Source of the DNA: Squalus acanthias
Lineage: Eukaryota
Assembly: GCA_030390025.1 (NCBI GenBank)
Contig: CM059431.1
Location: forward strand, 116,376,001 to 116,440,000
DNA length: 64,000 nt
Reading direction: 5' to 3'
This document shows, in pieces, positions 8,942-48,829 of this stretch. The notes beneath the pieces are model-generated. The model was not told where the DNA came from. It ran no database searches and saw only the letters and a list, made by a program, of their open reading frames with translations. Positions within the stretch are counted from its first letter, which is position 1. Every line of letters begins with the position of its first letter. A program made the translations under genes and the position numbers.

Positions 8942-10865
8942 GAACATCTACCTTGTCAAGCCCCCTCAGTATCTTATATGTTTCAATAAGATCACCTCTC
9001 ATTCTTCTAAATTCCAATGAGTATAGGCCCAGCCTGTTCAACCTTTCTTCATAAATCAACCCCCTCATCTCTGGAATTAACCTAGTGAATCGTCTCTGAG
9101 CTGCCTCCAATGTAAGTATATCCTTCCTTAAACAAGGAGAGCAAAACTGTACGCAATACTTAAGGTGTTGTCTCATCAATACCTTGTACAGTTGCAGCAG
9201 GACTTCCCTGCTTTTATATTCCAACCCCCTTGCAATAAAGGCCAACATTCCATTTGCCTTTTTGATTACTTGCTGTACCTGCATGCCAACTTTTTGTGTT
9301 TGATGCACAAGGACCCCCAGGTCCCTCTGAACTGTAGCATTTTGTAATCTCTCTCCATTTAAATAATAATTTGCTTTTTTATTTTTCCTGCCAAAATGGA
9401 TAACCTCGCACTTTCCCACATTATACTCCAGCTGCCAAATGTTTGCCCACTCATTTAGCCTGTCTATATCCCTTTGCAGATTCTTTTGGGTGAAAATTTG
9501 GTAGCGCCCCCTGGTGCTACCTTCACCAGGGTGCTAATTTTAGCAGCCCGAAAAAGTTAGCGCCCCTGTGGCCAATTTTCCCAGGTAGCGCCCCGAGAGG
9601 GAGGAGGGGTGCTACTGGAAGTGCCCCGCATCCCTCTTGGGGCGCTGCGAGGCAATATCGCGGCGCTATGTGCCGCGGTACTGCAGGCCTTCCTCCCCTT
9701 CTTAAAGAGGAGGGGCCTGGCGCAGCCCGTCCTGTCGCCCAGCTGGGCCACCAGGGATCGGGAGTGCCTGCAAACGAGCCCGGCACTCAAGAGGAGTGCT
9801 GGGCTCACGGAGAGCAGCCGGCACCCCGTGGGGGGCTTCACGGGGGCCGGGGACAGCAACGGGGGCAGGTGCTGGCAGGCGGCCAGCAACAAAAATGGCA
9901 GCCCGCCACCTCCCCTATAACTAGCGCCGCCCCGGCCGCAAGTAGGCCCCCCTGAACCCATCAGACATAGTGTCCGGTGGTAAGTCGGGGGCGCCACCCA
10001 ACATTACAGCCAGGGCACCAGCGGGATGATACGCATGACGATGACGTCATCGCCAGTGGCGCAGCACCGCGCAGCACAGCGCCGCCGCTAACCTCCCGCT
10101 GAATTTCACGAGTGACGTTAGCGGTATCGTGCCCAGGTGCTAGTTGAGTTGCGCCCCATTGACACCTTCTTAGGGCGCTAACGGGAGGCGCAAATCACCC
10201 GAATTTAGCCCCCTTTGAGTCCTCTGCACAACTTGCTTTCCCACCCATCTTTGTATCATCTGCAAACTTGGCTACGTTACACTCGGTCCCTTCATCCAAG
10301 TCATTAATGTAGATTGTAAATAGTTGAGGCCCCAGCACCGATCCCTGTGGCACCTCACTAGTTACCGTTTGCCAACCGGAAAATGACCCATTTATCCCGA
10401 CTCTCTGCTTTCTGTTAGTTAGCCAATTCTCTATCCATGCTAATATATTACCCCCAACTCCGTGAGCTCTTATCTTATACAGTAACCTTTTATGTGGCAC
10501 CTTATCGAATGCCTTCTGGAAACCCAAATACACCACATCCACTGGCTCACCTTTGTCCACCCTGCTCGTTACATCCTCAAAGAACTCCAGCAAGTTTGTT
10601 AAACATGATTTCCCTTTCATAAAACCATGCTGACTCTGCGTGACTGCATTATGATTTTCCAAATGCCCTGCTACTGCTTCCTTAATGAAGGACTCCAGCA
10701 TTTTCCCAACGACAGGTGTTAGGCTAACTGGTCTATAGTTTCCTGCTTTCTGTCTCCCTCCTTTCTTAAATAGGGGTGTTACATTTGCGGTTTTCCAATC
10801 TGCTGGGACCTCTCCAGAGTCCAGGGAATTTTGGTATATTGCAACCACTATCTCTGCAGCCACTT
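8942..10865 (-). mobile_element. CR1 RT fragment split by a MITE
   Basis: ORF 10195-10863 (NYRPVSLT, PQGSVLGP, FADD) and ORF 8928-9419 are consecutive CR1 RT parts. Confidence 0.9.
9487..10213. mobile_element. GC-rich Harbinger-like MITE
   Basis: Interrupts CR1 with an apparent TTT duplication; termini TGGGTGAAAATT / AATTTAGCCCCC; TTAGCGCC motifs. Confidence 0.7.
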
Positions 10866-13800
10866 CTTGTGCTTAGATTGGACTGTCATGTTTTTTTCTG
10901 TATATCTAGTAAAAATAGACTTCCTCTTCTGTTTCTATCTAACATGAATATGTGAGCATATGAAAAAAAGGCCAAGAAAAGACAATCAAGCCCATCAAAG
11001 TCACCAGTAGATAGTATTAAATCAAACACTGTTTTCCTACTCTCTGGTATGCTGGTTCCTGGAAAAATACAGAGAAAAGAAATCCTCTGGTCAATTCAGG
11101 AAACCACTGGGAAATTTGTCTCTGACTCCCTAAGGCAATCAAGGAGGCTCCAGGAGATTGTGACAAAAAACAGAAAATGCTGGAATCATTCAACTGTTCA
11201 GTCAGTATCTGTAGCGATAACAGACAAGTTCACGTTTCAAGTGTCGACACTTTGTCAGAGCTTGAAACATTAACTTGTCTGTTCTCTCCACAGATGTTAA
11301 CTTCTATGAATGTCATAAAGACTTATACATATAAAAAGATGGCAGGAACATAGCTTACGATTCCGTTGAAAGAATTCAGAATATATTCTTGCATCTCCGA
11401 ATCTTTTCGAAGAATTCTTACTGACAGCTGGTCAGTCAGCAACACTAGAGCATTTCTTATGTCATCTGACTCCTTAATATGGCACAGTCTTGTAAGATAC
11501 TTGTGTTATCCTATTTATTATAAATGGTGCAGGGTTGGCTTCTTTGGTTTTACAGGGGTCAGTGTTTCAAAACGTTTCAGTGCTAAGCTGTCTGAGCGTT
11601 TCAAGGACGAACTGCTTGCTCTTAAATTGCATCGGTCTTCCATAATTCATAGGAACATAAGTAAGTATGGAGCTCAAAAAGGTCCTTCAGTGCATCAAGA
11701 CTTTCCCCATTATAGTCTATAGCATGATAGGGAATGTGTTACATAGCCTATGCAGGGAATATCCCTCAATTTCTTGGGGAGGTAATCAGTCATGGGTAAA
11801 ACCTTAAAATAAGGGTCTGTAAAATTTCTCTTTGACCCCAAAGGTGCATATTAGTTCCAATCCAAAGGTGACGCAGCAGAGAATGAGCTATCGTGTTCTG
11901 AAGAGTATTTGGTCATCTGCATTCATTCTTATCTTTCTAAACTTAATCCTATTCTTAAACAGCTATTCATTTTTTAAAGGGAAGTTAATCAACACAGCAT
12001 TAATTATTTTGCTGGGAATCTAATCTTCTTGTTCACTATTCTGTGAGGAAAATCTTTTCTCTGATATCTAGCCACTCTTGAGGATTGTTGATTTTGTGCA
12101 CACGTTCTCTTGTACTGCATTCAGAGTCTTTACTCAATAACCTCTTTGCATTTCACCACTTATACGCCTGAGCACATAAAGAAAGCTAGATCATGTCTTC
12201 TCTCAATTCTCTTCTCTCCAACAAAAACAGGCTCAGTTCTGCAACTGTCTTTTAATATTTCGATCCCCAAGTCCCAGATACATCCATGTAACTCTTCTTT
12301 GCATTCCGCCCCTTTGAATCAATATCCTCTTGAAAGTTGGATACCCAACATTGCACACAATATTAACACAAAAATAACTTGAGTTTGGTTAAAAATAAAA
12401 TAAATATCCTTGCCATGCATCCCAGTAATAGATTAGCCCTGTTGATACCTTAATTGACTAGATACGTGCAGTGAACGGAAAACCTTTTCCTTTACACAAT
12501 TGCAAGATGGACATTGATAAGTTATAACTTTGTATTTAGGTAGCTTGGTGTATATGTTTATATGTACATACCTTTGTGTCATCAGCAAATTTTATAATAT
12601 ACTAGTAAATCTCCCATGGCATTGCTCATGCTGAATCCGAGGATGCAGTGGTATAGGGTGCAGTGGGCCTGCAGCACCTGCTAGTGGCTACAGCTTGCAA
12701 CTACATTGTCACTGAAACTTGTTTACATAGGGAAATCACATTATAACTGGTTAAATTGGCATTTTCAATGTCAAATGTTGACATAACGGGTGTGACCAAA
12801 ACTTGTGACAATAGCAAGTGAAGTTTGTGGACAGGAAATGTTTGCATACATGAGATTTTAAAAATAATTTAGATATACTACCAAGTAATCCAAGTATAGG
12901 AAGTATAGCTGTGAGCAAAGATTTCCTTTGTTGCTTAAATATAATGAACCCATTATTATAAAATTGGATCATGATTATGATTTGTTACACAAAGTGCAGA
13001 AGGACATCTTCCCCCATATTCTTAATAAAAGCTGTATTTTGAATCACAAAACAAGAAAAAAAATTAACACCACATTTTAACTGCTTGCTATAAAATAATA
13101 ATTAAATGTTTAGCAAAGCGGTACTACTATAACTATAAAAATGTATTAAGCCCATCGTGAATGATCCAAAAGGTTTTATGTTGCATTCGAGGTCAAAGTG
13201 GTGATTAAAGCAGAAATCAAACGCCAAGTCGTTTAATTAACTTGAGGTCCCCTTTTCCAGCATAAAGAACACTGACACATTCACTAAATGCATTATGTTC
13301 TGCTTAAGCTGTCATTATATTCATTTCGAGTAATATTTTTTATTCTCTATTATTTCTATTGGCAATTAGCATTTTTGAGTTTCTATTTATGACACTTTCC
13401 AATTGACATCAGGAACATGATTCTTTTCCTTAGAATGTTCACTTTATTTCTCCTTCCATTGTGATCTTTAAATAATTCAGAATTTGTGATTCATTCCAAA
13501 GGCTTTCTCCATGAATTAATGACGACCAGTCATCTGGTTAGGGACCCATACAGTTTAACCAAACTGTATTACTGTTTAGTCGCACTGTAACAACATTGCT
13601 AGAAATAATTATATTATGCGTACAAAAAGGCTGTACTCTACCATAATGACCGATAATGTGTAGCATCACTGGTCTGTGTTGAGTTAGCTAGGATGGTAGT
13701 GGGCTGGTCCAATTATTTTCAGTGTCCTTAGACAAAGGAAAAATCAGCCTTGGATCTTTATCTTATGGCATATGCTGGAAAGAGCATGTGTATGTTTGTC

Positions 13801-17048: not shown

Positions 17049-18689
17049 TGTAAGGGATTCTGACCCTGCGTGTCTCGCAGCCTGTGAGATTCACGCGGCT
17101 CTGTGCAGCCTGTATGTCAGTGCGGGTTTAGGCCTTGTTGCCTGTTCTGGTCTCCAGCCAGTCTGGGAGCACTAGACACACCTGTGAGTGGTTCGAAACA
17201 CTCGCCCTTACGGTTCTAGACACTGGACTTAGATGCGAGAGCAGTAATGGAGATGAAACTCATGTAGACTCGGTTGAATGGTACGAAATGGAAAATCTTT
17301 ATTGCATGATATTTAAGATTACGAAATACATGTCATAAGCACAGATTAATGACAGTACAATCTTACAAGCAGTTATATAGCTGATCCTAGGGAAACGAGG
17401 AACGAACGACACACCGTAAATAGGGGCACACATTACAAGTATCCTTAATACTTAAACCCTCCCCTATCAATATCTGTCCTAGCTAGATTCGTAGGATTTC
17501 GAGACTCATGCTCACCACTCGTGATAACTCGGAGAAATTCCGAATAGCTGATCGGATGTTTTTCACCGCAGCACCCACGTGTCGATCAGGAGGTCTCCTG
17601 GTCCCACTTGTTTACTTGCTTCTGCTCCGGCTAGCAGGCTGGACCGTCTGCTGTGATGAAGATCTGTGTTGGTTGGTTTAACAGGTACTTTCCGAATACA
17701 GCCCAGTCAATATCATCTTTGACGATCCGTTCTTGCAAGTTCAAAGAAGTCTTCCTGGCAAGGAAAACTTGGCTGTTCGACCTACAGGCACGGTCGGGAT
17801 TTACTGACCGTGGCGATGAGTATGGTCTTCCTCTCTTCTCATCTCATCTCATCTCATCTCATCTCATCTCGGGCCTTTGGTTCCGATGCCAGTTACCAAC
17901 ATAGGTCTTCGTTACGCGACACGAGGTAGATCCGAACGGATCAGAAAATTCAACAGTCTTTTTCAAAGAGGCACCAGGCAAGCAGGAACAAGACTACGAG
18001 TCAAAAACACAGGAGCAGCCACGAGGTTACGAGTCGATCGGATAAGAGAATAAGAGAAAGATGGACGGTTGGAGCTTGTAATTATAGTACAAAATCTTCC
18101 GTTTCCCGCCCAACCTTAATGTCCTTTCTTTTGTTTGAGTGTGGCGCTCAAATGTCTTGTATGGGTGATCTCCGTTCTTAATGGGTTTCGGGGCTACTCG
18201 TAACTGTCTGAGTACCTGTTAATATTTCTCCCATTGTTAAATCGGTCGGTGTTCTCCCTGGAGGGGTTTTGTGGCTTCCAAGTGTATTGTATAACTACCT
18301 GCTAACGGCTCTCTCATCGTAGAGTCGTTGGGATTTTACATATTAATGTCTTTTGGATGGGCCCTTGATTACTCGGTACAATAGCTTTCATTCGTACCTG
18401 GGAGACCGATTTCAGTATTTATGTGTATACTGCAAACCCATAATGTCTCGTGTATTATCTTCACTGTGCTGAATCTTAATCGATCTTGCACAAATGTTTA
18501 TTGGAACGCCATCTTGTCTGCCTGTCGAAAAGTCTAGAATGTTCTGTCACGAGGTGCGGCGGCCATTTTACAGGCTGCTTGTGTCCACTTTGAGAAACCT
18601 GACAGCATTCTGCTGAAATAAAAGCTGTTTGAACGAGACTCTGTGTTTTCTCCTTATTAATAAAATCGCGATATATTGCGAATTCTACA
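17049..18689 (-). repeat. 3' LTR (1641 bp)
   Basis: Direct repeat of 28111-29746; about 5 substitutions and one extra ATCTC unit, counted by eye. Confidence 0.97.
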
Positions 18690-18701
18690 GTCCCTCCTGT
18701 T
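18690..18701 (-). promoter_or_regulatory. Polypurine tract
   Basis: Minus strand AACAGGAGGGAC directly precedes the 3' LTR TGT. Confidence 0.7.
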
Positions 18702-19139: not shown

Positions 19140-21491
19140 TTACACGGTGCTTTCATCGTGCACGCGCACGTAACGTTCTCGCCACTCTCCCGTGTTTTCA
19201 TGCTTGGTGAGGCGTTTGTCTCTTTTACAATGTACGACCAATAGGAACACTACAATAAACACTTGACATACGACTAAAATGTGGGAGGCTATTCTGATCC
19301 ATGAAGGCACTTCAATATTGGTGAACAGATTCCACCACGGTGGAACTACTATATCCAGAATGTCTGTTCCTATTTCGACAGTTATCTGTTCTAATGTGTA
19401 AAAATGTTTCTGTGACACCGCGACGGCTTTTAAAAGCTTGGTGAGGTGTTCAGGGAGAGGGGGAATGAGGTATCCGAAATGCGCGACGAATCGTTGCAAG
19501 TCGGTGAAATTCTCTTTTACTGTGAGATGAACAGTGGATGGTTCAGGGATTGGGATAATTCGCTGTTGTGCTACTTGAACTTCCGCCCTGGGTTTAAAAC
19601 AGAAACTGCTGTCACTCACCGGACACCGGCTACGGTTTCCATGCTGGTAGTGTTGCGCTGCAGTGGTAACACAATATGTTCCACCCCCGATGTATGCTAC
19701 CTGCGGAGGCACATGATCTTGTGCCATTGCCTCCATGGTACAATTCATGGACTTGGCGCCAGTCGTTCTGAACCCGCACTGTGGTGTTAAAAAGGCATTC
19801 AAGTGCTGGGGGCACAGTATTATGTGTGCTCCCCTGCCACGACAACCAGAGAGATCTGTACCTGTCATCGTTTGCTCCCAGCGGATGACGTAAGGTGGAA
19901 CCGCTGCATAACGAATGTGGGCTCCCCCCTGAATGACACCAATGTTCTCTACCCGATACACCGGGGCGGGCTTTGCTGTGTCGCCCAAAACCGGCATGCG
20001 TAAAACTATACCCATAATGGTATGGTTTGATCGTCCGCAGTCCACGGGGACTGGGTATGCTTCTGAAGCTAGCCTGAGCTGGCACGGGCTCAGTGCGTTC
20101 TGAAAAGGGTGGAGCGCCCGCAGGTGTTTGTTACTTATCCAGGACGGGACCAAACCTTGTTTTAAATCCTCCAAATTACTGCGGCCTTCGCCCAGTAACC
20201 ACGCCCCGTAAAGCACGCACACCTCGTTCTGCGCAGCTTGTTCGGATGCATTCCGATCTTCCCTAATCAGGGCATTTACCGTCTTTGCATGTTTCTCCAA
20301 CTCTGCTATAATTTCCTTTAAATGGAGAGTCATGGCTTAGTCCTCGTGTAGACCCGACCCAACCACCTTATTCTCATCTGTTAGAATGTCTTTTAATTGT
20401 GTCTTTAAACCATTAATCTGGGTCTGCAGCTCCACACTGTCTAGAGCATTGACCACAGATGTACCCGTGTTAAAAGCAGTGAACGCGTCGTTCACTAAAC
20501 CCCTTCTTTGCCTCCCTACTTGATCCAAAACTTCCTGTGGTGCGGTGTACAAACTTGTTTTATCAATTTCCGCGAAATCGAATTTGTAAAATTGTCTGAA
20601 CATCTTGGTCAACAGGACCTGATACAACTGTTCCGTCTTTTTGGGGCACCACTCTGGTAACCGCACCTCGGTGAGATTTAAAATCACCGAGGCCACCGCG
20701 TAATGTACCCCCTGAAATAGTATCTGGTCTGTGGGGACCAGTACCAAACCATTCCCGGGTCCCTTACTAGTTTTAGGGCACCCTTCCTCTTCAGCTAGAA
20801 CCACCGGAATCGTGGGCGGGGCTTTGCGTGGGCGCGTAATGAGCTCAGTGGCATTTACCGGGATCGAAGAGTATGGGGCTCCGCACCCCCTGGTGCTCGC
20901 ATCCCACCTCATCCCCTGTCCGTTATCCTGCCACTGATTAATGAAAAATATGGATATGCCTTTGGGGCAAGGGTATTTTGACCCCCACATGCATACATAA
21001 ATTCCCTCGTCCGGTTCCCACCATTTGTCCCAACAGACTTTCACTTGTCCGTTTGTCCCCGTAATTGTCCGATGGGTATTATTACCCAGTCGTTCCCACT
21101 CGACCGAAGAGTTCCTCATAGTTTTGCTCAGCTTTCGCAGCCACCACCATCGGCTCAATGGGACATTCCCACTACAAGTCAAACAAATCCGTTTGCCGAC
21201 GGTGACGCTGATCCTGGGTGCGATGATCCTTACTTTGGGGCACATTAAAGAAGTCTCTTTGTAGGCAAACCCCGATGTGCTAGAATACTCCGTTGAGTTC
21301 GTTCCCAGCCATCCTGGCCACCTTCCCTTGTGGAAATAGGTGCTGGTCTCCTCTGCCTCCCGTCTTCCGGTCCCATCCACCGCGATGGGGGCCGTGTCCC
21401 CGGAACATCCAAACACCACGACATCCTTGGTGCGGCCTCGATAGGCCAATCCACATCCGATTGCCGCGAGCAATACTAGAATTCGTTCCAT
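19140..21491 (-). pseudogene. env: Envelope glycoprotein (signal peptide, Ig-like domain, class I fusion protein) with one in-frame TAA at 20337-20339
   Basis: Signal-like MERILVLLAAIGCGLA, RQRR/GLV cleavage site, heptad repeat, Cys-rich ectodomain and hydrophobic TM near the C-terminus. The two ORFs are in one frame (GAC TAA GCC ATG). Confidence 0.85.
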
Positions 21492-21777: not shown

Positions 21778-24700
21778 TTAAATTCTGAGAAGGCTGCTGC
21801 GAGCTCTTCCCGATGGTGGGAGGGCACTGACCCTTCCCTTTGAACTGCCGCAGCCTGTTGCTGCACTGATTCCTTCCTCTGATCTGCCGCCGCCTGTTGC
21901 TGCTGCGATGGGGCCGGGCTGTATCTGGGTTGCCTTAACCTTAAGTCTACGCCTTGGGGCAGTCTGGGGACATGACCACATCCTCCTGGGCTGGGGTTCT
22001 CTACTTGACCTACGGGGAGTTGCCATGGGCGGGGGTTCCGTGACTGACGGACCGGGTTCCGAGACTTCCATCGGGACGACCTGGGGTTCCACCACAGTCG
22101 CTGGCTCCGCCTCCGCTGACTCCGCCTCCCTAACCTCGGGGCTCGCAGTTTGTGGCTCCGCCCTGCTCAGCCCAGCAGGCGGCCCTTCACTCGCGATCTC
22201 TGCCTCCCCCGAGGGCGGGACGTTCAAAGCGGGCGGCTCTGTCTCTGGGGTCCTCACCGTCACTCCCTGTGCTCCCACAGCGGCTGGCCCCGCCTCCCCT
22301 AGCTCCTCCCTCCTGTCTTCGGGACCTGCAGCTTGTGTGTCCACCCTGTGTGGATCTCTATCTGCAGCCCGTATCCTCCCTATACCTAAAATGGGACCGT
22401 TCCCCAAAAACCACTCGTCTTCATCACTATCCTCATCTGACTCGAGTTCCCGGAATTCTCCCTCATCTGACTCCCAACCCCACAAAAATGCTTCATGATC
22501 TTCCAGGATGTCCCCTCCCCTGATGCAAGCTGCTATGCCTGCCTGTGTGCCTTGTGGTCCTACCTGGGGCTGTGCTTCCCCACTGGCGGGGTTTACCGCT
22601 GTGGTTTTCCCTTGCGCACCTGGCTTGTACAGTTTGCATTGGTTTACGTGGAACCACTTAGTGCGCCGAGGTACTTTTACGGCGTATACCATGGGACTCG
22701 CCTTGTCTACAATGTTGTAGGGTCCCATATACAGTGGTTCCAGACTCCCTACTCTGGCGTAGTTTCTGACCATGACCTGGTCTCCTACTTCCCACTCCCG
22801 CGTTTTGCGGGGTTCCAGCAGCAGGCGATTGCCCTGATGCTGCCTTCCCATGTTCCCAGCCGCCTGCTCATAAACCTGCTTCAGGCGCTCCAAGAGAGTC
22901 TGGGCGAACTTGTCCCTGCTTATCTCTTGGAGCTGACCCTCAGTGAGCACCGGCGCTAGCACATGGGTGGGGGTTCGCATGAGCCTCCCAGTCATCACCT
23001 CGTGCGGGGAGTACCCCGTACTTTTTGACTGACTGGCTCGGACCCCCATGAGGACTAAAGGCAGAACTTCCGCCCATTTTTGGGGCGAGTTCCTAGTCTC
23101 TTTCCTCAATTTCTCCTTCAGGGTCCGGTTCATGCGTTCAACAATCCCGGATGACTGGGGATTGTGTGCTACGTGCCACTTCCCTTCAATGCCCAAAAGC
23201 ATGAGGGTGTTCTGCATCACCTGGCCGGTGAAATGACTCCCTTGGTCTGACTCCACAAAACGGGGAAGTCCCCACCGCGAGAACACTTCCCGGACCAAGA
23301 TTTTTGCAGTACCCAGTGCCGTAGCTGTTCGACAGGGGAAGGCTTCCACCCACTTGGAAAACACATCCACCAAGACGAGGCAGTATTTATAACCTCCCTG
23401 AGTGGTGGGCAGGGGTCCTATATAGTCGATCTGTATCGACTGCCATGGTCCCTCTACCCTTCTTACGTGTCCCATGGGCACCTTCCTTTTCTGGGGGTCT
23501 GGGTTGTTTGCAGCGCACACAAGACAGTTTGCACAGAACTCGCGGACTTGTTCCCTGAGCCCTGGCCACCATCCCGCTTGCTCTACCCGTTGCCAGGTAA
23601 CCTCGGGCCCGGGGTGCCCTGCCCCTGGTCCCTCGTGAGCCAACTGGAGGAATTCCCTCCTGTGCTGCTGCGGCACAACCCACTGCTCCTCGCGGAACAG
23701 CATGCCTTCCTTAACTGAGAGGGTTGCCGTACTGTACGGACCTTCTACCTGCCTCCCCTCAGCAATGGTTTTTAGGACTGCTTTTAGGGCGGGATCCTGG
23801 GTTTGGACGGTCTTAAGGTCTAGGGGCAATGCTACCCTGGTGTTCCCGGGATTCCCGTCCCTGCCTTGGATCGCTGCTATGGGTCTGGTCCCATAGGGGT
23901 CCCAGAAAATGCCGTTGCGGGCACCTTCCCTGGCTAGCGCATCTGCCTGCTGGTTGCCCTCCCCACGGGGCTCTGTGGAGGAGTGAGCTTTCACCTTATG
24001 GATGAAAATCTCTCCTTCCTCCCCTACTGCTGCTGCTAAGATCTTTTCCAGCAAGGGCTTCACCGTTAAAGGTCGCCCGTCCGCGGAGGTGTATCCACGG
24101 CGGGACCAAATGGCCAGGTATTCCGTACACGAATTGCAGGTGAACATACTGTCCGAGCAAATCGTGTATGGGGTTGGGAAAATGTCTGGGTGGGTAACAA
24201 CGTACACCACGGCAGACAGCTCAGCCTGCTGCGCGCTCATGGTGCTGGGGAGCTTGATCGCCAGGGCAAGGTTTGCCGCAGGGTCATAAACTCCACACCC
24301 CGTGAGTCGTTCGCCAGCAGATACTGTGCTAGACCCATCAACATAAATCTCGCGCCCAGTGGGATGTATCCCGGCCCGTAAACCTATGTTGACATCCCAC
24401 ACCCCTTCCACCGAACACCGGTGGGTTGTACCGGGGTATACCAAATTGGCCGCAAGCCTGGGCTCGCAAAGACCTTTTACTTTAAGATCCATCTGGGAAA
24501 GAAGAAGGGTCCAGCGCGCAATGCGCACGCTGCTTACGGTCCCATCTTTAATCCTCGCATCTAGAAGCATCTTAGTTGGTGTGTGATGTGTGAGGAGAGT
24601 GATGGGAGAGAGCCCTGTGAAGATCGCTGATCTTTTCACAGCCCAATGCGTGGCTAAAAGGTGCCTTTCGCAATTGGAGAAACTTCTCTCCACATCCGTT

Positions 24701-26298
24701 AACACCCTGGATGAATAGACAACCGGCCTCAGCTTGCCGTGACGCTCTTGGAGCAGCACAGCGCTCAAGCTGTCTCCGCTGGCAGCTACCTCCAGGAAAA
24801 ACTCCTTCCCCCCATCTATGGCCCCTAAGGCTGGCGCGGTCTGCAGATCCCTTTTTAACTTCTCGAAGGCTGCTTGGCAGCCCTCGTCCCAAGACCACTC
24901 CACCCCCTTATGGAGGAGTCGGAGGAGCGGCGCTGCTGTGGCCGCATAGTCTTCGATAAAGTCCCTGCAGTAACCGGTCAGTCCCAAGAAGGACCTCACA
25001 CCCCTTATGTTGTTGGGAATCGGTAATTCTTGCACCGACTCCCTCCTCGCTTTGTCTATGGCTCTTTCCCCAGCGCGTATGGTCAGTCCCAGGAATTTTA
25101 CTTCCCGCTGACCGATACGTGCTTTCTTAGGATTTATTTTAAAACCCTTTCTCGCTAGCAGCTCCAATAACTCGTCCAGTAGTGGTCCATGCTCCTCCCT
25201 TGAGTCCGTAAATAGGAGCAAATCATCCACGTACTGCACTATCTGATTGGGCTGACTAAACTCCTTTAAACTTCCTGCCATACACTGATGGAAAATACTG
25301 GGGCTATTGTGGAAACCCTGTGGCAGGCAGTTCCATGTGTACTGTTGTCCTTTGAAAGTAAAGGCAAACTTGTACTGGTCCTCTCGCCTCAGCGGGATGG
25401 ACCAAAAACCGTTCGAGATATCCAGCACCGTGAACGTGGTCGCGGACGCTGGGATGCTCCCTATTAGGTCAGCAACTGCTGCTACCGTGGGCGCGCAGGC
25501 GGGAATGTTACTGTTAAGGACTCTGTAGTCCACCGTGGCTCTCCACGAATTATCCGGCTTCCTAACCGGCCATAATGGGGAGTTCACGTGTGTGGCTATC
25601 GGCCTCAACACGCCCTGCTGCACCAAGGAGGACATGGCTGTCTCCATATCGGGTTCTGCTTCTTTGGGGAAGTTATACTGCTTTTGGGGCCGGGTCATGG
25701 GGTCCCCATCTACGCTGACCTCAAACCCGATAACCCTCCCACAATCGTGCTTGTGGGTTGCAAACGCGTGCATATTATCTGACACGTACGTTTGCATGTC
25801 CGTTGGGACATCTGCGACCATAAGCCTGAGGTCGTAGCCTCCGGATGGCTGTATGGTACACAGGACCCCTGTTTCTTCCTCCCCCGGAATCACTACTACC
25901 TCGCCTTTTTCACCCTTAGCCCCCCAGAGACAGTGATTTCTGAGGTCCACGAGGATCCCGTGTCCCGATAGAAGATCAGACCCGAGAATACCTCTTCCAC
26001 CCCCCTCCTGCCATTCCATCAGTATACACTTCCACTTAAGGTGAAGTGCTCCCAAACGAATGGATAGCGGAAGGGAGAACGCGCCAGCCTGTTCTTTTCC
26101 TGTGAACCCCGCTAACGTGAATGGGACCCTGGTAGATAGCGGCGAGTCAAAAGGGCTATCTGTATGGATTATGGTGCAAGAAGCTCCCGTGTCCAACAAA
26201 TAACTACCCCTCTGTTTCTCTACCTCCATCTCCACCAAAGGTCGCTTCCACGCATCATAGCTAAGCGGACACAGGTAGACGGGCTGCGCGGGTTCTAG
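21778..26298 (-). CDS. pol: Pol polyprotein: protease, RT, degenerate RNase H, RNase H, integrase, C-terminal extension
   Basis: LLDTGA; LPQGF..YVDD; FLEVAAS (tether); YVDGS..AEL..SDS..KAH..GNQQAD; HHCC, DDE and GPY motifs. The frame is open from the gag stop onward. Confidence 0.95.
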   Translation of the reverse strand, partial: LEPAQPVYLCPLSYDAWKRPLVEMEVEKQRGSYLLDTGASCTIIHTDSPFDSPLSTRVPFTLAGFTGKEQAGAFSLPLSIRLGALHLKWKCILMEWQEGGGRGILGSDLLSGHGILVDLRNHCLWGAKGEKGEVVVIPGEEETGVLCTIQPSGGYDLRLMVADVPTDMQTYVSDNMHAFATHKHDCGRVIGFEVSVDGDPMTRPQKQYNFPKEAEPDMETAMSSLVQQGVLRPIATHVNSPLWPVRKPDNSWRATVDYRVLNSNIPACAPTVAAVADLIGSIPASATTFTVLDISNGFWSIPLRREDQYKFAFTFKGQQYTWNCLPQGFHNSPSIFHQCMAGSLKEFSQPNQIVQYVDDLLLFTDSREEHGPLLDELLELLARKGFKINPKKARIGQREVKFLGLTIRAGERAIDKARRESVQELPIPNNIRGVRSFLGLTGYCRDFIEDYAATAAPLLRLLHKGVEWSWDEGCQAAFEKLKRDLQTAPALGAIDGGKEFFLEVAASGDSLSAVLLQERHGKLRPVVYSSRVLTDVERSFSNCERHLLATHWAVKRSAIFTGLSPITLLTHHTPTKMLLDARIKDGTVSSVRIARWTLLLSQMDLKVKGLCEPRLAANLVYPGTTHRCSVEGVWDVNIGLRAGIHPTGREIYVDGSSTVSAGERLTGCGVYDPAANLALAIKLPSTMSAQQAELSAVVYVVTHPDIFPTPYTICSDSMFTCNSCTEYLAIWSRRGYTSADGRPLTVKPLLEKILAAAVGEEGEIFIHKVKAHSSTEPRGEGNQQADALAREGARNGIFWDPYGTRPIAAIQGRDGNPGNTRVALPLDLKTVQTQDPALKAVLKTIAEGRQVEGPYSTATLSVKEGMLFREEQWVVPQQHRREFLQLAHEGPGAGHPGPEVTWQRVEQAGWWPGLREQVREFCANCLVCAANNPDPQKRKVPMGHVRRVEGPWQSIQIDYIGPLPTTQGGYKYCLVLVDVFSKWVEAFPCRTATALGTAKILVREVFSRWGLPRFVESDQGSHFTGQVMQNTLMLLGIEGKWHVAHNPQSSGIVERMNRTLKEKLRKETRNSPQKWAEVLPLVLMGVRASQSKSTGYSPHEVMTGRLMRTPTHVLAPVLTEGQLQEISRDKFAQTLLERLKQVYEQAAGNMGRQHQGNRLLLEPRKTREWEVGDQVMVRNYARVGSLEPLYMGPYNIVDKASPMVYAVKVPRRTKWFHVNQCKLYKPGAQGKTTAVNPASGEAQPQVGPQGTQAGIAACIRGGDILEDHEAFLWGWESDEGEFRELESDEDSDEDEWFLGNGPILGIGRIRAADRDPHRVDTQAAGPEDRREELGEAGPAAVGAQGVTVRTPETEPPALNVPPSGEAEIASEGPPAGLSRAEPQTASPEVREAESAEAEPATVVEPQVVPMEVSEPGPSVTEPPPMATPRRSSREPQPRRMWSCPQTAPRRRLKVKATQIQPGPIAAATGGGRSEEGISAATGCGSSKGRVSALPPSGRARSSLLRI

Positions 26299-28106
26299 TC
26301 ATGGGGTATTATTAGACGGTCCTGCGGCACCTACGGGGCCGGTTGCGACCGCCACCTTTCCATGTGCACTCAATAAATTGCGCATGGCTCCTAACACTAC
26401 TTCGAGGTCGTCGGGAGGGGTGGGTGCATTAGCTTCCCTAGCCGGGACAGGCGCCTGGGCTCGGACCGCGGGATTTTTATCCTTGGAATCTTTCCAAGGG
26501 TTCCTGCAATGCTTGCGCCAGTGCCCTGTCTTCCCACACCCGTAACAAGCATTACTTGCCTGTGGGGCGCGATTACCCTCCTGATGCCACTCTCTTTGAT
26601 ACGGGGCTGCGGGTCGTACCTCATGTACTTTTCCCTTAAGGGGACGTGTTGCCATACCCCTTATATTGCGATATCCTAACGTGAGTCAATTCAAGACCGA
26701 CTCTTCCGTAATGTTGGGGTCATTGGGATCAAACCATGCTTTTGCCTGCTCTCTGACGGCTGGTAAACTGTTGGCTATTATGCACCTAAGCCAATGAGCT
26801 AAACCGGCGCCTTCCACATCTTCGCGCTCGGGCGCACCTAGACAACTGCGCTCATATACTGGCCACAGCCTGTCGGCAAAAACCTTCGGGGGTTCTCCCT
26901 CCATCTGCACTGTCTGTCCCACTCTAGCAAACGGACCTTCATCGTCCGCCCCCAACACTTCCAGGACCTCATTCTTTAATGCCTCATAAGTCTTGGTTCC
27001 CCTCTTGCTCTCGCCTGAGAGACACTGAAGGATTGTACTGCCTAACGAAAACAACAGCATTTTTGCTGTTTCCCCATCATCGCAGCCGTTAATGGCTGCG
27101 GTTTGCTCAACTTCTCTGAAATGTACGGAAGGGTCGTCTGCCTCGGTTAGCTTCCGTACGTGATTTATCATAACTCTCAGCTGATGTGAACTGTGAGGCA
27201 ACACAAGCTGTCCGAGGAGATCCCCTGGTTCTTCCCCACCGTTTCTGTTTGGGCCCCTTTTAATACCCGTTACTGGATACAACGGTCCCTTTTCCACTTC
27301 TTTCTCAATGGGCTCTTTCGTTTCTTCCATTGCTTCCTCCCTAACCCAGGTTTCCGAATAGCTGGTGGCGCAGAGGGCGCAGTGGCTACTACTTCCTCTG
27401 CTTTACTTGGTGGGGATTTCTTAAACTTCTCACTTACTAGCGGCTGGTGTGCTGACGGACTGATAAGGCACACCATGCCGTGCGCTTTGTTCACGGCCTT
27501 TTTGAGGTGCTCTATCTCTTTTTGGCAGGCGCTATGATCGGCTCCCTGAAACTCATCCTCAAGGGCCAACTTATATGCCGCCCTAACCCCCGTTAAGCTC
27601 TCTTCCTGAGTTCTTATCTGGGCAGCTTGGCGGGCACATCGTTCCTTTAACCTGCTCTCATTTAACTTTGCCTCAGTGACCTGACACTCGAGGTAATCTA
27701 TCCTTGTTTTATGGTGACTGGAGATTTCCTGGCGTTCTTGGTGCAACGCACTTAAATTCCTAATGAGCATTTCCCCTCCAGAAACCTTCTCATCCATTTC
27801 TCCCTCTAAATGACTGATTCGAGCTATTAGCGCTGTAATGGTCTGGTTTGAAATCTGAACCTGCCTTTTGTAACACATAAGCCAGACTGCTTTCTCGAGT
27901 GTCTTTTTATGTTCTTTACTATCTGTCCACCTTTCGGCTGCCTCTAGTGGACTTTTATCCGCTAACAATTCACTTATCCATTTCTTAGTTAGATTAACCT
28001 TTCCGAACACATAATCTGCTATCTTTTCCTGCATAACATTTCGTACAGTCACACCAAAGTCTAACACACTACCCTCTCGCTGCCAGTGTCCTGCCGCGGT
28101 CGCCAT
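26299..28106 (-). pseudogene. gag: Gag (coiled-coil N-terminus, capsid-like region, CCHC knuckle) with one frameshift near 27364 and one in-frame TGA at 26686
   Basis: Three consecutive ORFs between PBS and pol; CYGCGKTGHWRKHC zinc knuckle. Confidence 0.85.
28089..28105 (-). promoter_or_regulatory. Primer-binding site, tRNA-Ser-like
   Basis: TGGCGACCGCGGCAGGA, 5 nt after the LTR; resembles the complement of tRNA-Ser 3' ends (TGGCG.....GGCAGGA). Confidence 0.65.
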
Positions 28107-28110
28107 TTTC

Positions 28111-29746
28111 TGTAAGGGATTCTGACCCTGCGTGTCTCGCAGCCTGTGAGATTCACGCGGCTCTGTGCAGCCTGTATGTCAGTGCGGGTTTAGGCCTTGT
28201 TGCCTGTTCTGGTCTCCAGCCAGTCTGGGAGCACTAGACACACCTGTGAGTGGTTCGAAACACTCGCCCTTACGGTTCTAGACACTGGACTTAGATGCGA
28301 GAGCAGTAATGGAGATGAAACTCATGTAGACTCGGTTGAATGGTACGAAATGGAAAATCTTTATTGCATGATATTTAAGATTACGAAATACATGTCATAA
28401 GCACAGATTAATGACAGTACAATCTTACAAGCAGTTATATAGCTGATCCTAGGGAAACGAGGAACGAACGACACACCATAAATAGGGGCACACATTACAA
28501 GTATCCTTAATACTTAAACCCTCCCCTATCAATATCTGTCCTAGCTAGATTCGTAGGATTTCGAGACTCATGCTCACCACTCGTGATAACTCGGAGAAAT
28601 TCCGAATAGCTGATCGGATGTTTTTCACCGCAGCAACCACGTGTCGATCAGGAGGTCTCCTGGTCCCACTTGTTTACTTGCTTCTGCTCCGGCTAGCAGG
28701 CTGGACCGTCTGCTGTGATGAAGATCTGTGTTGGTTGGTTTAACAGGTACTTTCCGAATACAGCCCAGTCAATATCATCTTTGACGATCCGTTCTTGCAA
28801 GTTCAAAGAAGTCTTCCTGGCAAGGAAAACTTGGCTGTTCGACCTACAGGCACGGTCGGGATTTACTGACCGTGGCGATGAGTATGGTCTTCCTCTCTTC
28901 TCATCTCATCTCATCTCATCTCATCTCGGGCCTTTGGTTCCGATGCCAGTTACCAACATAGGTCTTCGTTACGCGACACGAGGTAGATCCGAACGGATCA
29001 GAAAATTCAACAGTCTTTTTCAAAGAGGCACCAGGCAAGCAGGAACAAGACTACGAGTCAAAAACACAGGAGCAGCCACGAGGTTACGAGTCGATCGGAT
29101 AAGAGAATAAGAGAAAGATGGACGGTTGGAGCTTGTAATTATAGTACAAAATCTTCCGTTTCCCGCCCAACCTTAATGTCCTTTCTTTTGTTTGAGTGTG
29201 GCGCTCAAATGTCTTGTATGGGTGATCTCCGTTCTTAATGGGTTTCGGGGCTACTCGTAACTGTCTGAGTACCTGTTAATATTTCTCCTATTGTTAAATC
29301 GGTCGGTGTTCTCCCTGGAGGGGTTTTGGGGCTTCCAAGTGTTTTGTATAACTACCTGCTAACGGCTCTCTCATCGTAGAGTCGTTGGGATTTTACATAT
29401 TAATGTCTTTTGGATGGGCCCTTGATTACTCGGTACAATAGCTTTCATTCGTACCTGGGAGACCGATTTCAGTATTTATGTGTATACTGCAAACCCATAA
29501 TGTCTCGTGTATTATCTTCACTGTGCTGAATCTTAATCGATCTTGCACAAATGTTTATTGGAACGCCATCTTGTCTGCCTGTCGAAAAGTCTAGAATGTT
29601 CTGTCACGAGGTGCGGCGGCCATTTTACAGGCTGCTTGTGTCCACTTTGAGAAACCTGACAGCATTCTGCTGAAATAAAAGCTGTTTGAACGAGACTCTG
29701 TGTTTTCTCCTTATTAATAAAATCGCGATATATTGCGAATTCTACA
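28111..29746 (-). repeat. 5' LTR (1636 bp)
   Basis: Direct repeat of 17049-18689, followed on the minus strand by the PBS. Confidence 0.97.
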
Positions 29747-29939
29747 GGGGCCTCTTCCTGTCTTTTTCTGTGGTCGACATTTTTGCACCACTCGTTCTGA
29801 GAGAGAGAGAGAGATTCGGAGAGAGAGAAAGAGAGACTTCTGCATTGACTCAACGCTTTGTGAGGTAGTTTTGCCTACTGATCCTAACTTCGCTGGTTCT
29901 TTAGTTGCTGTCCTTCATTACTTTGCTTGCAAAGAGAAT

Positions 29940-31099
29940 ATGGGGGCTGCACTGATTGGGGGCGTCATCCTGCTCCAGCTGAATCGGAGGATACAGAGAC
30001 GCAAAGAGAGAGTGGCAATGATGGCCAGACGGAGGAGGGCCAACAGGCGTATGTACAGGAGAGCTTACCCTCCCAGGGTATATCGTGAACAGCACTCCTA
30101 CATCCATATGTCTGAGGAGCTGTGTTTGCGAAGGCTGCGATTCAGCAAGGAGGTGGTCACTGAGCTCTGCCACCTGCTGCAGCCAGATCTGCAGCCTCAA
30201 CTGAGGTCCAGGACGTCTCTGTCGGTGGCAGTGAAGGTCACAGTGGCTCTCAACTTTTACGCTACTGGCTCATTTCAAGCTGCTGCTGGGGACCTCGCCA
30301 ATATTTCCCAGTTCGCGGTGCATTGCTGCATCCGGCAGGTCACAAATGCCCTCTTTAAAAGGAGACGAGAGTTCATCTCTTTCCCCATGACCCCAGACAA
30401 GCAGCGTGACCGCGCTCTGGGCTTTGCGAGGGTAGCGGGCTTCCCCATGGTGCAGGGAGCCATTGACTGCACGCATGTGGCTTTGCGTGCTCCGCATGAG
30501 AATGCCGAGGAATTCCGGAACAGAAAGGGGTTCCATTCCTTGAATGTTCAGTTGGTCTGTGACCACAGACAGCTGATACTCACTGTCAATGCCCACTATC
30601 CTGGCAGCTGCCACGATGCTTTTATCCTGCGCCAGACTACTGTGGCAGAACTTTTCGAGGCACCGCATCAGCCAGTTGGTTGGCTTCTCGGGGACAAGGG
30701 GTATGCATTGAGCACCTGGCTGATGACACCGCTCCGTACGCCCAACACCCCTGCTGAGCTGCGGTAAATGAGAGCCATCAAGCTACCAGGAACATAATTG
30801 AGCGCACAATTGGCGTGCTGAAGCAACGGTTCCGCTGTCTCGACCATTCTGGAGGAGCCCTGCAGTACTCGCCTGAGCAAGTATCCAACTTCGTAGTCGT
30901 GTGCTGCATGTTGCATAACATGGCAATCCTCAGGACCCAGCCAATGCCACCAGGCCTTGGAGCACCACCAGAGGAGGAGGAGGAAGAGGAGGAAGAGGAC
31001 GAGGAGGATGATCATCAGCAGCACCAAGGCGGGAGGGCGGCCCACAATGGTCAAACTGCAAGGGCCATCCGTCAACGGCTAATAGCAAGCCGCTTCTAG
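29940..31099 (+). pseudogene. Harbinger (HARBI1-like) DDE transposase with a 1-nt frameshift near 30766
   Basis: GAIDCTHV, NRKGFHSLNVQ, GSCHDA and GDKGY motifs. CGG TA(C) AAT GAG restores RYNESH..IER..LKQRF. Confidence 0.92.
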
Positions 31100-31392
31100 G
31101 GCCCCTGCCATTGCTAACAACATTAATGAACCCAGCACGCAACCCCTAAGCCGGCCAAGGCACAAATAATTCCAACCACCAACCATGTATATTTTGAATA
31201 CAGAAACTTATTTATTTTACAAACTCTGTGTGTGTCAATTCCTCATGACAAACTCACAGAAATAAAAAAAAAAAACAGTCAATAACATAACTGGTTCTCA
31301 CAACCTGGAGATAATGTCCAAAACACTAAACAAAAGTTGGACCATGAACCTCGACCTTTAATAAAAAAATGACCAGCATTTTGTCACACCTC

Positions 31393-33265
31393 CTACTTTT
31401 TGCCCTTCGAGGGTGATCTCCTTCCCTTGCGCACTTCCCCCCTTCTAACCCTACTGCTCCTCCGTAATGGGACCTCAGTGGCTGCAGCAAGGCTGGTGGA
31501 AGGCTGCTGCTCGTCAGACCCTGACACTGCAGATGCCCCTGAAGAACGGCCTCGACCAGTTCTGGGCCTGGAGGGCCCGGCTGCAGACTGCACCAACTCT
31601 GCATGGGCGGCAGCAGTCTGTCCTACAGGCGGTGGCAAGTGCAGTGGAGAAGTGACAGTGTTGGCAGCAGGAATGCTGTCATCGTGAGAGAGGACAGCAA
31701 CTCCCTGCTCGCCCGACACACTGGCACTCCCACGGGCAGCACTTCAGCATCCGGAGCAATCTGCTGGAGAACAGATTGCTGGCCTGCTGCGGCACGGTGA
31801 CAGCCCCGGGGACATGTGCACGAACCATCGAGGTTGGCAGCAGTCTGTGCTCGCGTGGCCTCAATCTGAGTCTGTATGAGAGCAGTCAGAGATGGGATCA
31901 CGGCAGCCAGTGACTGAATTGCAGCACTAAGCGTTAGTGTGGCATCCACCTGTGCTACAGCGAAGTGCTCCACACTCCTTGCCAGTGACTCAATGCATTC
32001 GGGCACCCTTCCCACTGCACCCATGAGCTCAGTGTGCATGCCCACCGCCTGGGTGTTCATTTCTGCGATCAGCCGCTCCTCCTCTGCGTCCATTGCAGTA
32101 GGAGTGTCTGGCATACTCTCCCTCTGGGGAGAAGGCCCCCGTTCTTCCCTACCCCCATGGCGTTGCTGCAGCCCGCTGGGTCCTGGAGCTTCACCCTCAT
32201 CAGACCCTTCCCCCCTGCTCCCCTCCAGGGAAGGCGGGTTCCCAGTGTGGGCATGGGCTTCCTCGGGAGAGGGTGGCACTGATGCTCCGGCTTCCTCTTC
32301 CTCCTCGGCTGCAGCATCACTCCCAGTGGCAGCTTCAGGGCCCGTCTCCTCAGCTGGTGAATCACCATCTGAAAGCAGGGAGGTACAAGAGTGGCTTTAG
32401 CGTGAGGACAGGGTGGCAGTAAGGGAGGAATAAGTGCAGCGAGTTAGCAAGTTGGATTGAAAGTGTCAAAGGCTGGTGTTGTGAGGGACAAGTGGAAGGA
32501 CAGAGGACAAAAAGGTGATGACCTTACCATTGCTGTCCAGAACGGGGTCGGCGTCTCCAGTGGCGACGGGACCGATCACCCGGCTTGCCACAATCCTGTG
32601 GACGCGCTCCTCAAGATCGCTGAGGGGTTGCAGCTGAGGCCGCCCTCCACCTGTCCGTTGCTGCTGTCTCCGATTATGCGCCAGCTTGGCCTGTAAGAAA
32701 AAGGACAGCATCTGAGTAAATATACAGCCATGGTCTTGCCTGATGTGCCTCCCATAGGTGAATAGCCCTTACTGTATACAGCCATGGTCTTGCCTGATGT
32801 GCCTCCCATAGGTGAATAGCCCTTACTGTATGCAGCCATGGTCTTGCCTGATGTGCCTCCCATAGGTGAATAGCCCTTACTGTATGCAAAGTGTGGAATG
32901 TGTGTGTGTGTTTCATGAAAGGGCCATAGGTGTTGGATGAGTGTTGTGCATTGGGGTTTTAAGACCCTCTGGCCATAGAGTGAGGTTGAGATGGAGGGAT
33001 GGAGAGGTATTGAGAAAAAGCCACTCACCCTGACGACCCGAGTGAGGTCGTTGAACTTTTTGCGGCATTGAGTATGGGTCCTGGGCAACATGCTCCTGGA
33101 GGAGACGCTCTGAGCCACCTCCTTCCACACTCTTCTGAACTCGCGTGGCAAAGGCCTCCTGCCACTCTCAGGGAAGAGCATACATCTTCTGCGCTCCACC
33201 GCGCCAACCAGAGCATCCAAGGCCCGCTCGGTGAAGCGATGAGCGCGTTCTCTCACCCTCTCCAT
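31393..33265 (-). pseudogene. Harbinger Myb/SANT-like DNA-binding gene, three exons (33265-33029, 32690-32528, 32368 to about 31393); probable late frameshift
   Basis: RAHRFT..L..W.EVA..RT..QCRKKFNDL motif. GT-AG junctions are phase-compatible and join into ORF 31623-32279. Confidence 0.8.
32724..32886. repeat. Tandem repeat, 3 x 54 bp, in intron 1 of the Myb gene
   Basis: CAGCCATGGTCTTGCCTGATGTGCCTCCCATAGGTGAATAGCCCTTACTGTAT repeated three times. Confidence 0.95.
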
Positions 33266-34149
33266 CCTTGGCAGCAAAATAGATTCACAGGTCTCTCCAG
33301 GCCGAGATTCAAGGCTGCAATGAGCAGGGTGTGGCTGGGGAGCAAGTTGGCCCCCCCCGCTTTAAGAAGTGGCCGGCGCCAGTGTGTCTGTGTTCCCTCG
33401 CTAACTGGCAGCAGCTGCGCTGCGCTCGCGCGCTGAGTTAGCGCCTCACTGCTCGGCCTTTGCGTCTTAAGACAGGTGTGCAGCGCCTGATTTAGCGCTC
33501 CACTCACCTCCCGGGGCGGTAAAAGTGAAGTTTCCAGTCAGTGCCGATAATTAGCGCCAGGCGCTAATATTTGCGTCCAGATGATATTTGCGCCCCAAAT
33601 GGGGCGCGACCTAATTTTTCCCCCTTGGACTATAACCTGGTGTTGTGTGACTTCTCACATGCTGCTTCAAGGAATTGACACTTGAGGATGTCCTCCAATA
33701 TCCTACCAAGTTAGCAATCTGGGGATCCGAGGAAGTTTGATTGGCAATGTCTTACAGCTGCATGGAATACTGTGTAGTCTTCAGACTCAGTATGTGTGCC
33801 CAGCCAATTTGCATTCCTCCATGCAAGAATAACAAATCAATCTGCAGCTGGGGAGACAGACCGCACATCATCTGTAACATATTCTATGTCTTGAATGTAG
33901 TGTATTTATCTGGACGCTAGATGGGGAATTGGGAGTTTTCTGTTAGAACAAACACCTTGCTGTCAGCATATAACTTGTAAGACTCTAGGGGGGAGAAATT
34001 CATTATAGCCCAGGAATGAAAAGTTTGAGATGTAGCGCCAGGCGCTAATGAATCACGCTGCACGCAAAATTGAGTCTCATCGCTCAAAGAAAGGATTGGA
34101 GCGCTAAATCAAGTGCTAATGGCCTAGCTCAGTGGCATTACACTCAAAG

Positions 34150-47639: not shown

Positions 47640-48620
47640 GGCGTCGCTGGCAAGGCCAGCATTCATTGTCCATCCCTAATTGCCCTTGAGAAGGTGGTGG
47701 TGAGCCGCCTTCTTGAACCGCTGCAGTCCACGTGGTGAAGGTACTCCCACAGTGCTGTTAGGTAGGGAGTTCCAGGATTTTGACCCAGCGACGATGAAGA
47801 ATCGGCGATATACTTCTAAGTCAGGATGATGTGTGACTTGGAGGGGAACTTGGAGGTGGTGGTGTTCCTCTGCGTCTGCTGCCCTTGTCCTTCTAGGTGG
47901 TAGAGGTCGTGGGTTTGGGAGGTGTTGCCGAAGAAACCTTGGCGAGTTGCTGCAGTGCATCTTGTAGATGATATACACTGCAGCCACGGTACACCAGTGG
48001 TGGAGTGAGTGGTTGTTTAAGGTGGTAGAGGGGGTGCCAATCAAGAAGGCTGGTTTGTCCTGGACGGTGTCGAGCTTCTTGAGTGTTGTTGGAGCTGCAC
48101 TCATCCAGGCAAGTGGAGAGTATTCCACCACACTCCTTACTTGTGCCTTGTAGATGGTAGAAACGCTTTGGGGAGTCAGGAGGTGAGACACTCGCCGCAG
48201 AATACCCAGCCTCTGACCTGCTCTTGTTGCCACAGTATTTATGTGGCTGGCCCAGTTAAGTTTCTGGTCAATGGTGACCCCCAGGATGTTGCTGGTGGGG
48301 GATTTGGTGATTGTAATGCCATTGAATGTCAAGGGACAGTGTTTAGACTCTCGCTTGTTGGGAATAGTCATTGCCTGGCACTTCTGTGGCGCGAATGTTA
48401 CCTGCCACTTATCAGCCCAAGCCTGAACGTCGTTCAGGTCTTGTTGCATGCGGGCATGGACTGCTTCATTATCTGAGGAGTTGTGAATGGTGCTGAACAC
48501 TGTGCAGTCATCAGCGAACATCCCCACTTCTGACCTTATGTTGGAGGGAAGGTCATTGATGAAGCAGCTGAAGATGGTTGGGCCTAGGACACTGCCCTGA
48601 GGTACACCTGCAGTGATGCT
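47640..48620 (-). mobile_element. CR1-group LINE RT 3' portion, inserted in a Penelope terminus (47550-47607 / 48620-48665)
   Basis: GVPQGSVLGP and FADD. The flanks join into TCTCTCCACAGA..TGCTGCCTGACCTGCTGAG, as in the Penelope at 3600-3660. Confidence 0.85.
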
Positions 48621-48829
48621 GCCTGACCTGCTGAGGAATCCCAGCATTTTCTGTTTTGATTCCAGTATGTAACTCTCCTGTCATCACAAAACAGGAGCTT
48701 TTCATATTTTTTTCTCAAGTGTAGAATGTTTCGCAATCACAAATCAACCGTATTTAAGCCAATCTGCAAAACAGGAGTACTAACTCAAAAACAAGAGAGA
48801 AAATAAAAAGCCATCGTATAAAGGAGTTG

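Follow-up and report, generated by a model that had tools for sequence, protein, structure and literature searches.

A UGA-CUAG stop between gag and pol in an endogenous retrovirus of Squalus acanthias, and its probable readthrough

In-frame UAG stops between gag and pol are standard in gammaretroviruses, epsilonretroviruses, and the snakehead retrovirus (SnRV), and SnRV-type readthrough is accepted, according to the passages of a 2026 review that we draw on here (PMC13517186). The same passages give UGA gag-pol junctions for SSSV (UGAAGA), ZFERV (UGACGA), and RMEV (UGAAGU), with readthrough presumed, and call the cis-signals of epsilonretrovirus readthrough unclear; XtERV-S also has a UGA junction (PMC8278194). 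UGACUA, the motif of type II readthrough, is listed in sections 2.5 and 4.1.2 of the review only for alphaviruses, PSIV, and cellular genes. In human cells, UGA-CUA alone gives 1.5% readthrough, and OPRL1 reaches about 31% (PMC4132726). Here we describe an endogenous retrovirus (ERV) in a stretch of 64,000 nucleotides from Squalus acanthias (GCA_030390025.1, contig CM059431.1, positions 116,376,001 to 116,440,000; hereafter the window, whose numbering we use throughout), in which gag ends with UGA followed by CUAG.

At 26307..26290, the minus strand of the window reads ACC CCA TGA CTA GAA CCC, the sequence given in the original prediction from the letters alone. The frame with the CCHC zinc knuckle of gag terminates at this TGA (26299..26301, minus strand), which follows CCA; the CUAG context lies at 26295..26298 (minus strand); and beyond the TGA the frame has no further stop for 1506 codons, to 21778. 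(The prediction had the frame running for 20 codons into a pol open reading frame of 1486 aa. The in-frame continuation stands, and the 1486-aa frame is the part that starts at TTG, codon 21 of the full frame.) This gag-pol junction has the layout of type II readthrough: UGA, then CUA(G), with coding sequence continuing in frame beyond. Between the long terminal repeats (LTRs), the coding strand has 113 TGA triplets, and the gag stop is the only one with CTAG after it. Across the whole window, CTAG follows 6 of 2275 TGA triplets, which corresponds to a chance of about 1 in 380.

We think it highly probable that intact members of this family make Pol as a Gag-Pol fusion by reading through the UGA, and that readthrough is driven mainly by linear context, including CUAG. 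Programmed readthrough was also proposed in the original prediction, and sequence comparison supports it in four ways: the stop appears to be common to copies, its position is kept in related Gags, the site seems homologous to that of SnRV, and no AUG precedes the protease homology. The copy in the window could not make full Gag-Pol itself, given a frameshift and an internal stop in its gag and a stop in its env. In an intact member, a small share of ribosomes would read through the gag UGA, helped by CUAG, to yield the fusion. The near-cognate tRNAs for UGA are those for Trp, Cys, or Arg, and one of them would decode the stop in perhaps a few percent of events. The rate of readthrough would then set the ratio of Gag to Gag-Pol, and the protease would afterwards release the Pol enzymes.

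The known systems resemble this junction in different respects. The alphaviruses (SINV and CHIKV), PSIV, and the vertebrate genes AQP4, OPRK1, OPRL1, and MAPK10 share the identical 7-nt motif, which bears out the earlier claim that UGA-CUAG is known to be leaky in vertebrate genes and some viruses (PMC4132726; PMC13517186). Unlike in those type II systems, the motif here lies at a retroviral gag-pol junction and has no supported downstream stem-loop. In MoMLV, too, an in-frame stop separates the zinc knuckle from the DTG of the protease, but that stop is UAG with an 8-nt spacer and a pseudoknot, as opposed to UGA-CUAG without a supported structure (we did not search for pseudoknots). SSSV, ZFERV, RMEV, and XtERV-S are retroviruses of aquatic vertebrates with gag, UGA, and pol in one frame. 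However, the contexts in the first three are not UGA-CUA and those viruses are epsilon-related, while XtERV-S is ERV-L-related with a class I Env. These four viruses also mean that the prediction, which set the UGA here against the UAG of gamma- and epsilonretroviruses, was right about UAG being standard there and overstated the novelty of UGA. A specialist would be moderately surprised, since retroviruses of aquatic vertebrates with in-frame UGA junctions have been described before.

The closest parallel is SnRV (clade Huo, PMC6001957). SnRV and the provirus in the window both have an in-frame stop after CCA, 32 to 36 codons before the protease aspartate. They also share the reverse transcriptase (RT) words LPQGFH and QYVDD and the start of a site like a primer-binding site (PBS). 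They differ in that SnRV has UAG-GGC where the window has UGA-CUAG, in that their RTs are only 46% identical, and in that Env and capsid show no similarity. We read the SnRV-type junction in L120, an SnRV-like locus whose Pol is 99% identical to the SnRV-matching protein P0012: the stop is in CCA-TAG-GGC and the aspartate follows it by 32 codons. The stop in the window is in CCA-TGA-CTAG, 36 codons ahead of the aspartate, and this suggests that the junction is homologous to an accepted readthrough site.

To compare copies of the element, we used contigs from 4 of the 20 matching runs, with four different organism labels, placed on 25700-27500. Among the 24 runs listed there was no RNA run with a match, which says nothing about expression. 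In all four runs, contigs cover position 26290 with at least 27 letters to the contig end, so all four span the gag stop. Among the 40 variant places listed, of 286, none lies in TGACTAG or anywhere between 26291 and 26364 in the four runs. (Four listed variants fall at +12 to +64 of the stop, and two of these are silent.) In contrast, at the internal gag TGA at 26688, another letter is found at 100% of the depth in all four runs, which is the pattern of a private nonsense change. Judging from these contigs, the TGA at the end of gag is inherited and not private to the copy in the window.

The contigs also point to a candidate extended readthrough signal, a 36-nt stretch from -1 to +35 of the stop (26267..26302, minus strand) that is matched by a divergent relative with non-aligning flanks. 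Run X11 shows a contig joint at 26267, with a side of 36, and behind 26302 a loose end of 255 letters; run X6 has a loose end before 26267. The X11 rows probably represent one contig, from a divergent relative that keeps the 36 nt around the stop. In human genes, context effects on readthrough reach +27 (10.64898/2026.07.14.738498, in the part we draw on), which fits a short conserved stretch without structure. Sequence out to about +35 may raise the readthrough rate.

The position at which Gag ends is kept in its relatives. Three other clusters together supply seven full Gags, which share 32-45% identity with each other and stop 12 or 13 residues past the motif G[KQ][VI]AxxTG; the Gag in the window stops 12 residues past it. 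Two of the seven are 51-54% identical to the window Gag. Four further Gag matches, which are distant or partial, lack the G[KQ][VI]AxxTG motif, and none of the 11 Gags contains a protease motif. The relatives that could be named are from skate (54%) and, among the 8 of 17 capsid matches that we looked up, from whale shark, horn shark, catshark (twice), and Xenopus (once). They point to a cartilaginous fish as the likely host.

Several observations weigh against readthrough. First, the gag TGA could be a nonsense mutation in a normally fused gag-pol frame, with the motif present by chance. Two more in-frame stops interrupt the copy in the window, and one of these is also a TGA; the 40 listed variant places out of 286 leave room for minority variants inside TGACTAG. 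Also, the 32-54% identical Gag relatives are known as proteins only, so that their stop codons and 3' contexts cannot be read. (The DNA of relatives did not turn up in viral contigs when searched with a protease-RT piece or a Gag profile, and a Pol profile gave L120 only; metagenome contigs, where 0 of 119 pattern loci matched, and genome contigs gave none either.) Furthermore, gag-like sequence passes into pol in P0006, a gene model from the coelacanth, where glutamine stands at the position equivalent to the stop, and a fused gag-pol is also annotated in seven of the published consensus sequences of lokiretroviruses. Nevertheless, this explanation is very unlikely. The private internal TGA gives itself away in all four runs and the gag-end TGA is absent from the listed variants, the seven related Gags end at the same place, and CTAG would rarely follow a TGA by chance. 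No fused Gag-Pol was seen among the 17 capsid matches (the longest has 628 aa). A search of 8000 scored candidates for fusions 1144-3265 aa long also came up empty, although this second result is weak evidence. As for P0006, which is known from protein only, its residue 229 is Gln and the next is Gly, and this Gln stands exactly 36 residues before the catalytic aspartate, at the position of the stop in the window. Gln-Gly is what a UAG-G-type site would look like if that copy, or its gene model, had a sense codon in place of the stop.

Second, Pol might be made apart from Gag, either from the AUG at codon 24 of the pol frame, on a spliced or internally started mRNA as in foamy viruses, or by reinitiation past the gag stop, with CUAG being incidental. 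Counted from the stop, the TTG is codon 21, the first ATG is codon 24 (26229-26227), and the aspartate of the protease DTG is codon 36. The AUG is in a good context (-3 and +4 are both G), and an 83%-identical protein, P0002, has retained the Met. There is an acceptor-like AG at 26261, with 10 pyrimidines among 14 letters, 32 nt upstream of the AUG. Also, the retrotransposon Tca2 of Candida has a promoter at its junction, according to the relevant part of PMC2194720. We consider a separate start of Pol unlikely. Homology to the protease starts at codon 9 in the alignment to the coelacanth protein and the Pfam RVP match starts at codon 17, and no AUG lies ahead of the start of the homology in the pol frame. 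A start at codon 24 would lose 15 residues that align with the coelacanth protease and 7 that match RVP. Whereas a foamy-virus-type pol AUG lies ahead of the protease, the first AUG here sits inside the protease homology. Moreover, two out-of-frame AUGs lie between the acceptor-like site and codon 24.

Relatives seem unable to start Pol at this place. In four amphibian Pol relatives, the first Met comes 3 residues before the catalytic aspartate, at the active site itself, and L120 has no Met in the first 100 codons of pol; the coelacanth protein lacks a Met there as well. Finally, a separate start would leave both the motif and the in-frame layout unexplained.

Third, we found no RNA structure that would stimulate readthrough, although a downstream stem-loop accompanies some type II sites. 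A 7-bp stem is predicted between +23..+29 and +77..+83 (26219..26279, minus strand) with pair probabilities of 0.94-0.99, but its energy is within that of shuffled sequences, and we do not regard it as a supported signal. Near the stop, no fold exceeded the shuffles (z of -1.8 to +1.5 over 18 windows of sequence, and z of -0.75 in a separate test), and Rfam gave no match. For Tca2, the sequence around the gag UGA did not direct readthrough in yeast (same part of PMC2194720). The stop could be bypassed by some other recoding, such as a frameshift out and back or a distant RNA signal as proposed for Tca2, which needs more than the local junction, and CUAG would then be of minor importance. There is one slippery-like heptamer, at 26635. 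We give this explanation the least credence: gag and pol share one frame, both other frames have stops around the junction, and the local motif is sufficient in other systems (PMC13517186 and PMC4132726, in the passages we draw on).

Which family does the provirus belong to? LPQGFH and QYVDD are shared with the SnRV row of a published alignment of RTs. The nearest Pols, which include amphibian and coelacanth proteins, have 54-56% RT identity, and the best named Pol matches are from frogs and the coelacanth. We built a tree from 27 rows chosen from 121 Pol proteins, and a second quick tree with 66 rows. In the 27-row tree, Metaviridae-like rows and P0020, a protein with the lokiretrovirus motif, split off from the window RT at 100/100 (98 SH-aLRT in the 66-row tree). 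The window RT also lies outside a gamma/epsilon-like group (100/99) that holds P0008, which bears a gamma-type Gag. Backbone support for the tie to SnRV was 47/74 in the 27-row tree, and the window and SnRV were not sisters. On its sequence words, the RT of this ERV is of the snakehead-retrovirus type. We also considered whether it is a lokiretrovirus and rejected this on the RT: the words differ, and P0020 is 33% identical in RT and on a separate branch.

The env-like gene (19140..21491, minus strand) has a signal-peptide-like start, an RQRR site that we spotted by eye, a coiled coil, and a C-terminal hydrophobic helix, and it is interrupted by a stop at 20339-20337. In the Atlas, its C-terminal half matches Baculo_F (0.93-0.94) and Fusion_gly (0.88), both with low recognition; the N-terminal half had no Atlas match. 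No Pfam family scored above the cut-off, and a PDB sequence search gave no match. Lokiretrovirus Env, in comparison, is related to paramyxovirus F (PF00523) and has an RXKR site. Neither Env nor capsid showed similarity to L120, and neither Env piece had a tblastn match to it below E = 0.17. Possibly, an F-type Env is joined here to an SnRV-type Pol in an undescribed retroviral lineage. (An Ig-like stretch at residues 88-167 of Env matches Pfam Ig_3 at E = 0.15, below the cut-off. A single-sequence structure model of Env had a mean pLDDT of 35.7 and was unusable.)

Lokiretroviruses have a similar stop at the end of gag. The supplement of PMC7947760 gives 24 consensus sequences made by its authors, and 7 of these have a separately annotated gag or smc-gag gene, among those listed. 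Six of the seven gags end with TGA-CTA(G/A), namely CTA-G in Ofa, Pyo, and Sau and CTA-A in Bsp, Dcl, and Lro; in the seventh, Tfu, one base of the stop codon is uncalled and CTA-A follows at the matching place. The supplement lists no gag gene for Cne; here, too, a TGA-CTA-G shares its frame with the protease motif. We read the frames by eye: the stops of Ofa, Cne, Dcl, and Lro are in frame with the authors' Pol, and those of Pyo, Sau, and Bsp are in frame with the conserved segment at the start of the protease (the frame of Bsp shifts further on). Most matches to these motifs in the lokiretrovirus consensus sequences sit elsewhere (13 of 17 for "tgactag" and 18 of 20 for "tgactaa"). The fused gag-pol annotations mentioned above are those of Oja, Sri, Ame, Sme, Pma, Pfl, and Str. 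A word search of the main text of PMC7947760 gave 0 matches to "stop" or "readthrough". The papers that describe lokiretroviruses leave the expression of their pol unaddressed, and the gag ends suggest a testable mechanism for it.

Besides these gag ends, lokiretroviruses share with the window a coiled-coil N-terminal part of Gag, a tether plus RNase H, and possibly an F-like Env. They differ in their RT words (CPFGY.NSP and IYVDD) and in the fused gag-pol annotated for seven consensus sequences. As the window RT is not lokiretroviral, the shared signal would reflect either independent use or an exchange of gag regions. It is quite possible, if short of probable, that two deep and separate lineages of fish retroviruses, the cartilaginous-fish family of the window and some lokiretroviruses, each adopted the leaky UGA-CUA(G/A) stop of their hosts to make Gag-Pol. 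In the family of the window, this would have replaced UAG-G at the same codon (as in the UAG-GGC of SnRV and the Gln-Gly of the coelacanth protein), and the family would be an undescribed lineage with an SnRV-type polymerase and an F-type envelope. Readthrough at the junction in the window would by itself bring a new type of signal to the few contexts listed for retroviruses. Since the motif has already been dissected in human reporters, the ratio of Gag to Gag-Pol in basal fish retroviruses can be tested directly.

Readthrough as a strategy, UGA at the junction, and the motif are each known, and what we have not found in print, within the literature searched, is the CUAG context in a retrovirus (XtERV-S, whose context is in a figure, could have UGA-CUA). 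Our literature search, whose coverage lay outside subscription journals and Repbase, found no paper on UGA-CUAG at a retroviral junction. Such a junction was not in the passages seen of PMC12440569, PMC5210030, PMC10699275, PMC6001957, PMC12193657, and 10.1101/2023.10.26.564294, or in word counts of PMC9040795, and "loki" has 0 occurrences in PMC13517186. In a supplement of elephant-shark ERVs (PMC4422223), "tgactag" occurs 0 times and "tgacta" 3 times, with none at a gag-pol junction; the junction of lineage I was not located.

The provirus as a whole spans 12.7 kb on the minus strand and has the features of an ERV: two LTRs, CCCC on both outer flanks (the target-site duplication), a PBS, a purine-rich tract, and the gene order gag, protease-RT-tether-RNase H-integrase, env. 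The 5' LTR (28111..29747, 1637 nt, TG...CA) and the 3' LTR (17049..18690, 1642 nt, with the purine-rich tract ahead of it), both on the minus strand, are identical in 1632 of 1642 columns of a self-BLAST alignment (99.4%), with 5 mismatches and one gap. The provirus is young: with the rate that PMC4422223 assumes for sharks, a divergence of 0.3% would correspond to some 7 million years, as a rough figure. At about 1.64 kb, its LTRs are very long, and they contain a run of a GAGAT pentamer.

The PBS (28088..28105, minus strand) starts 5 nt past the 5' LTR, begins like the PBS-like site of L120, and overlaps the first gag ATG (28106-28104). We take it to be of the tRNA-Arg type; the window contains no tRNA gene for comparison. 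This first ATG is 4 nt past the 5' LTR, and the next Met is 24 codons on, where the annotated start of the related Gag P0125 lies; this next Met may be the real start of gag. Two other Gags (P0122 and P0128) start with residues similar to those after the first ATG, and their annotated N-termini thus appear to be encoded by the PBS.

The gag gene (26302..28106, minus strand) encodes a coiled-coil N-terminal part, a capsid-like part, and one CCHC knuckle. It is broken by a frameshift near 27364 and by the stop at 26688-26686; its two end pieces are 50% and 44% identical to P0122, an unbroken skate Gag. The knuckle (26503..26550, minus strand), 68 residues ahead of the gag stop, matches Pfam zf-CCHC at E = 0.016, below the cut-off, and the one in the skate Gag matches at E = 3.4e-6. 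The pol frame (21778..26298, minus strand; 1506 codons) encodes protease, RT, tether, RNase H, integrase, an SH3-like domain, and a low-complexity tail, with Pfam matches to RVP, RT_RNaseH plus RNase_H, and rve. The tail, about 270 residues after the SH3-like domain of the integrase (22600-21781, minus strand), is absent from the amphibian and coelacanth relatives.

Other mobile elements lie around the provirus. Next to the 5' LTR, at 29721-33361, are remnants of a Harbinger-like DNA transposon with DDE_Tnp_4 and Myb/SANT frames. Elsewhere in the window there are LINE RT and endonuclease fragments (231-1535, 10198-10872, 47679-48680, and 58622-60481) and Gypsy-like fragments (54107-56856).

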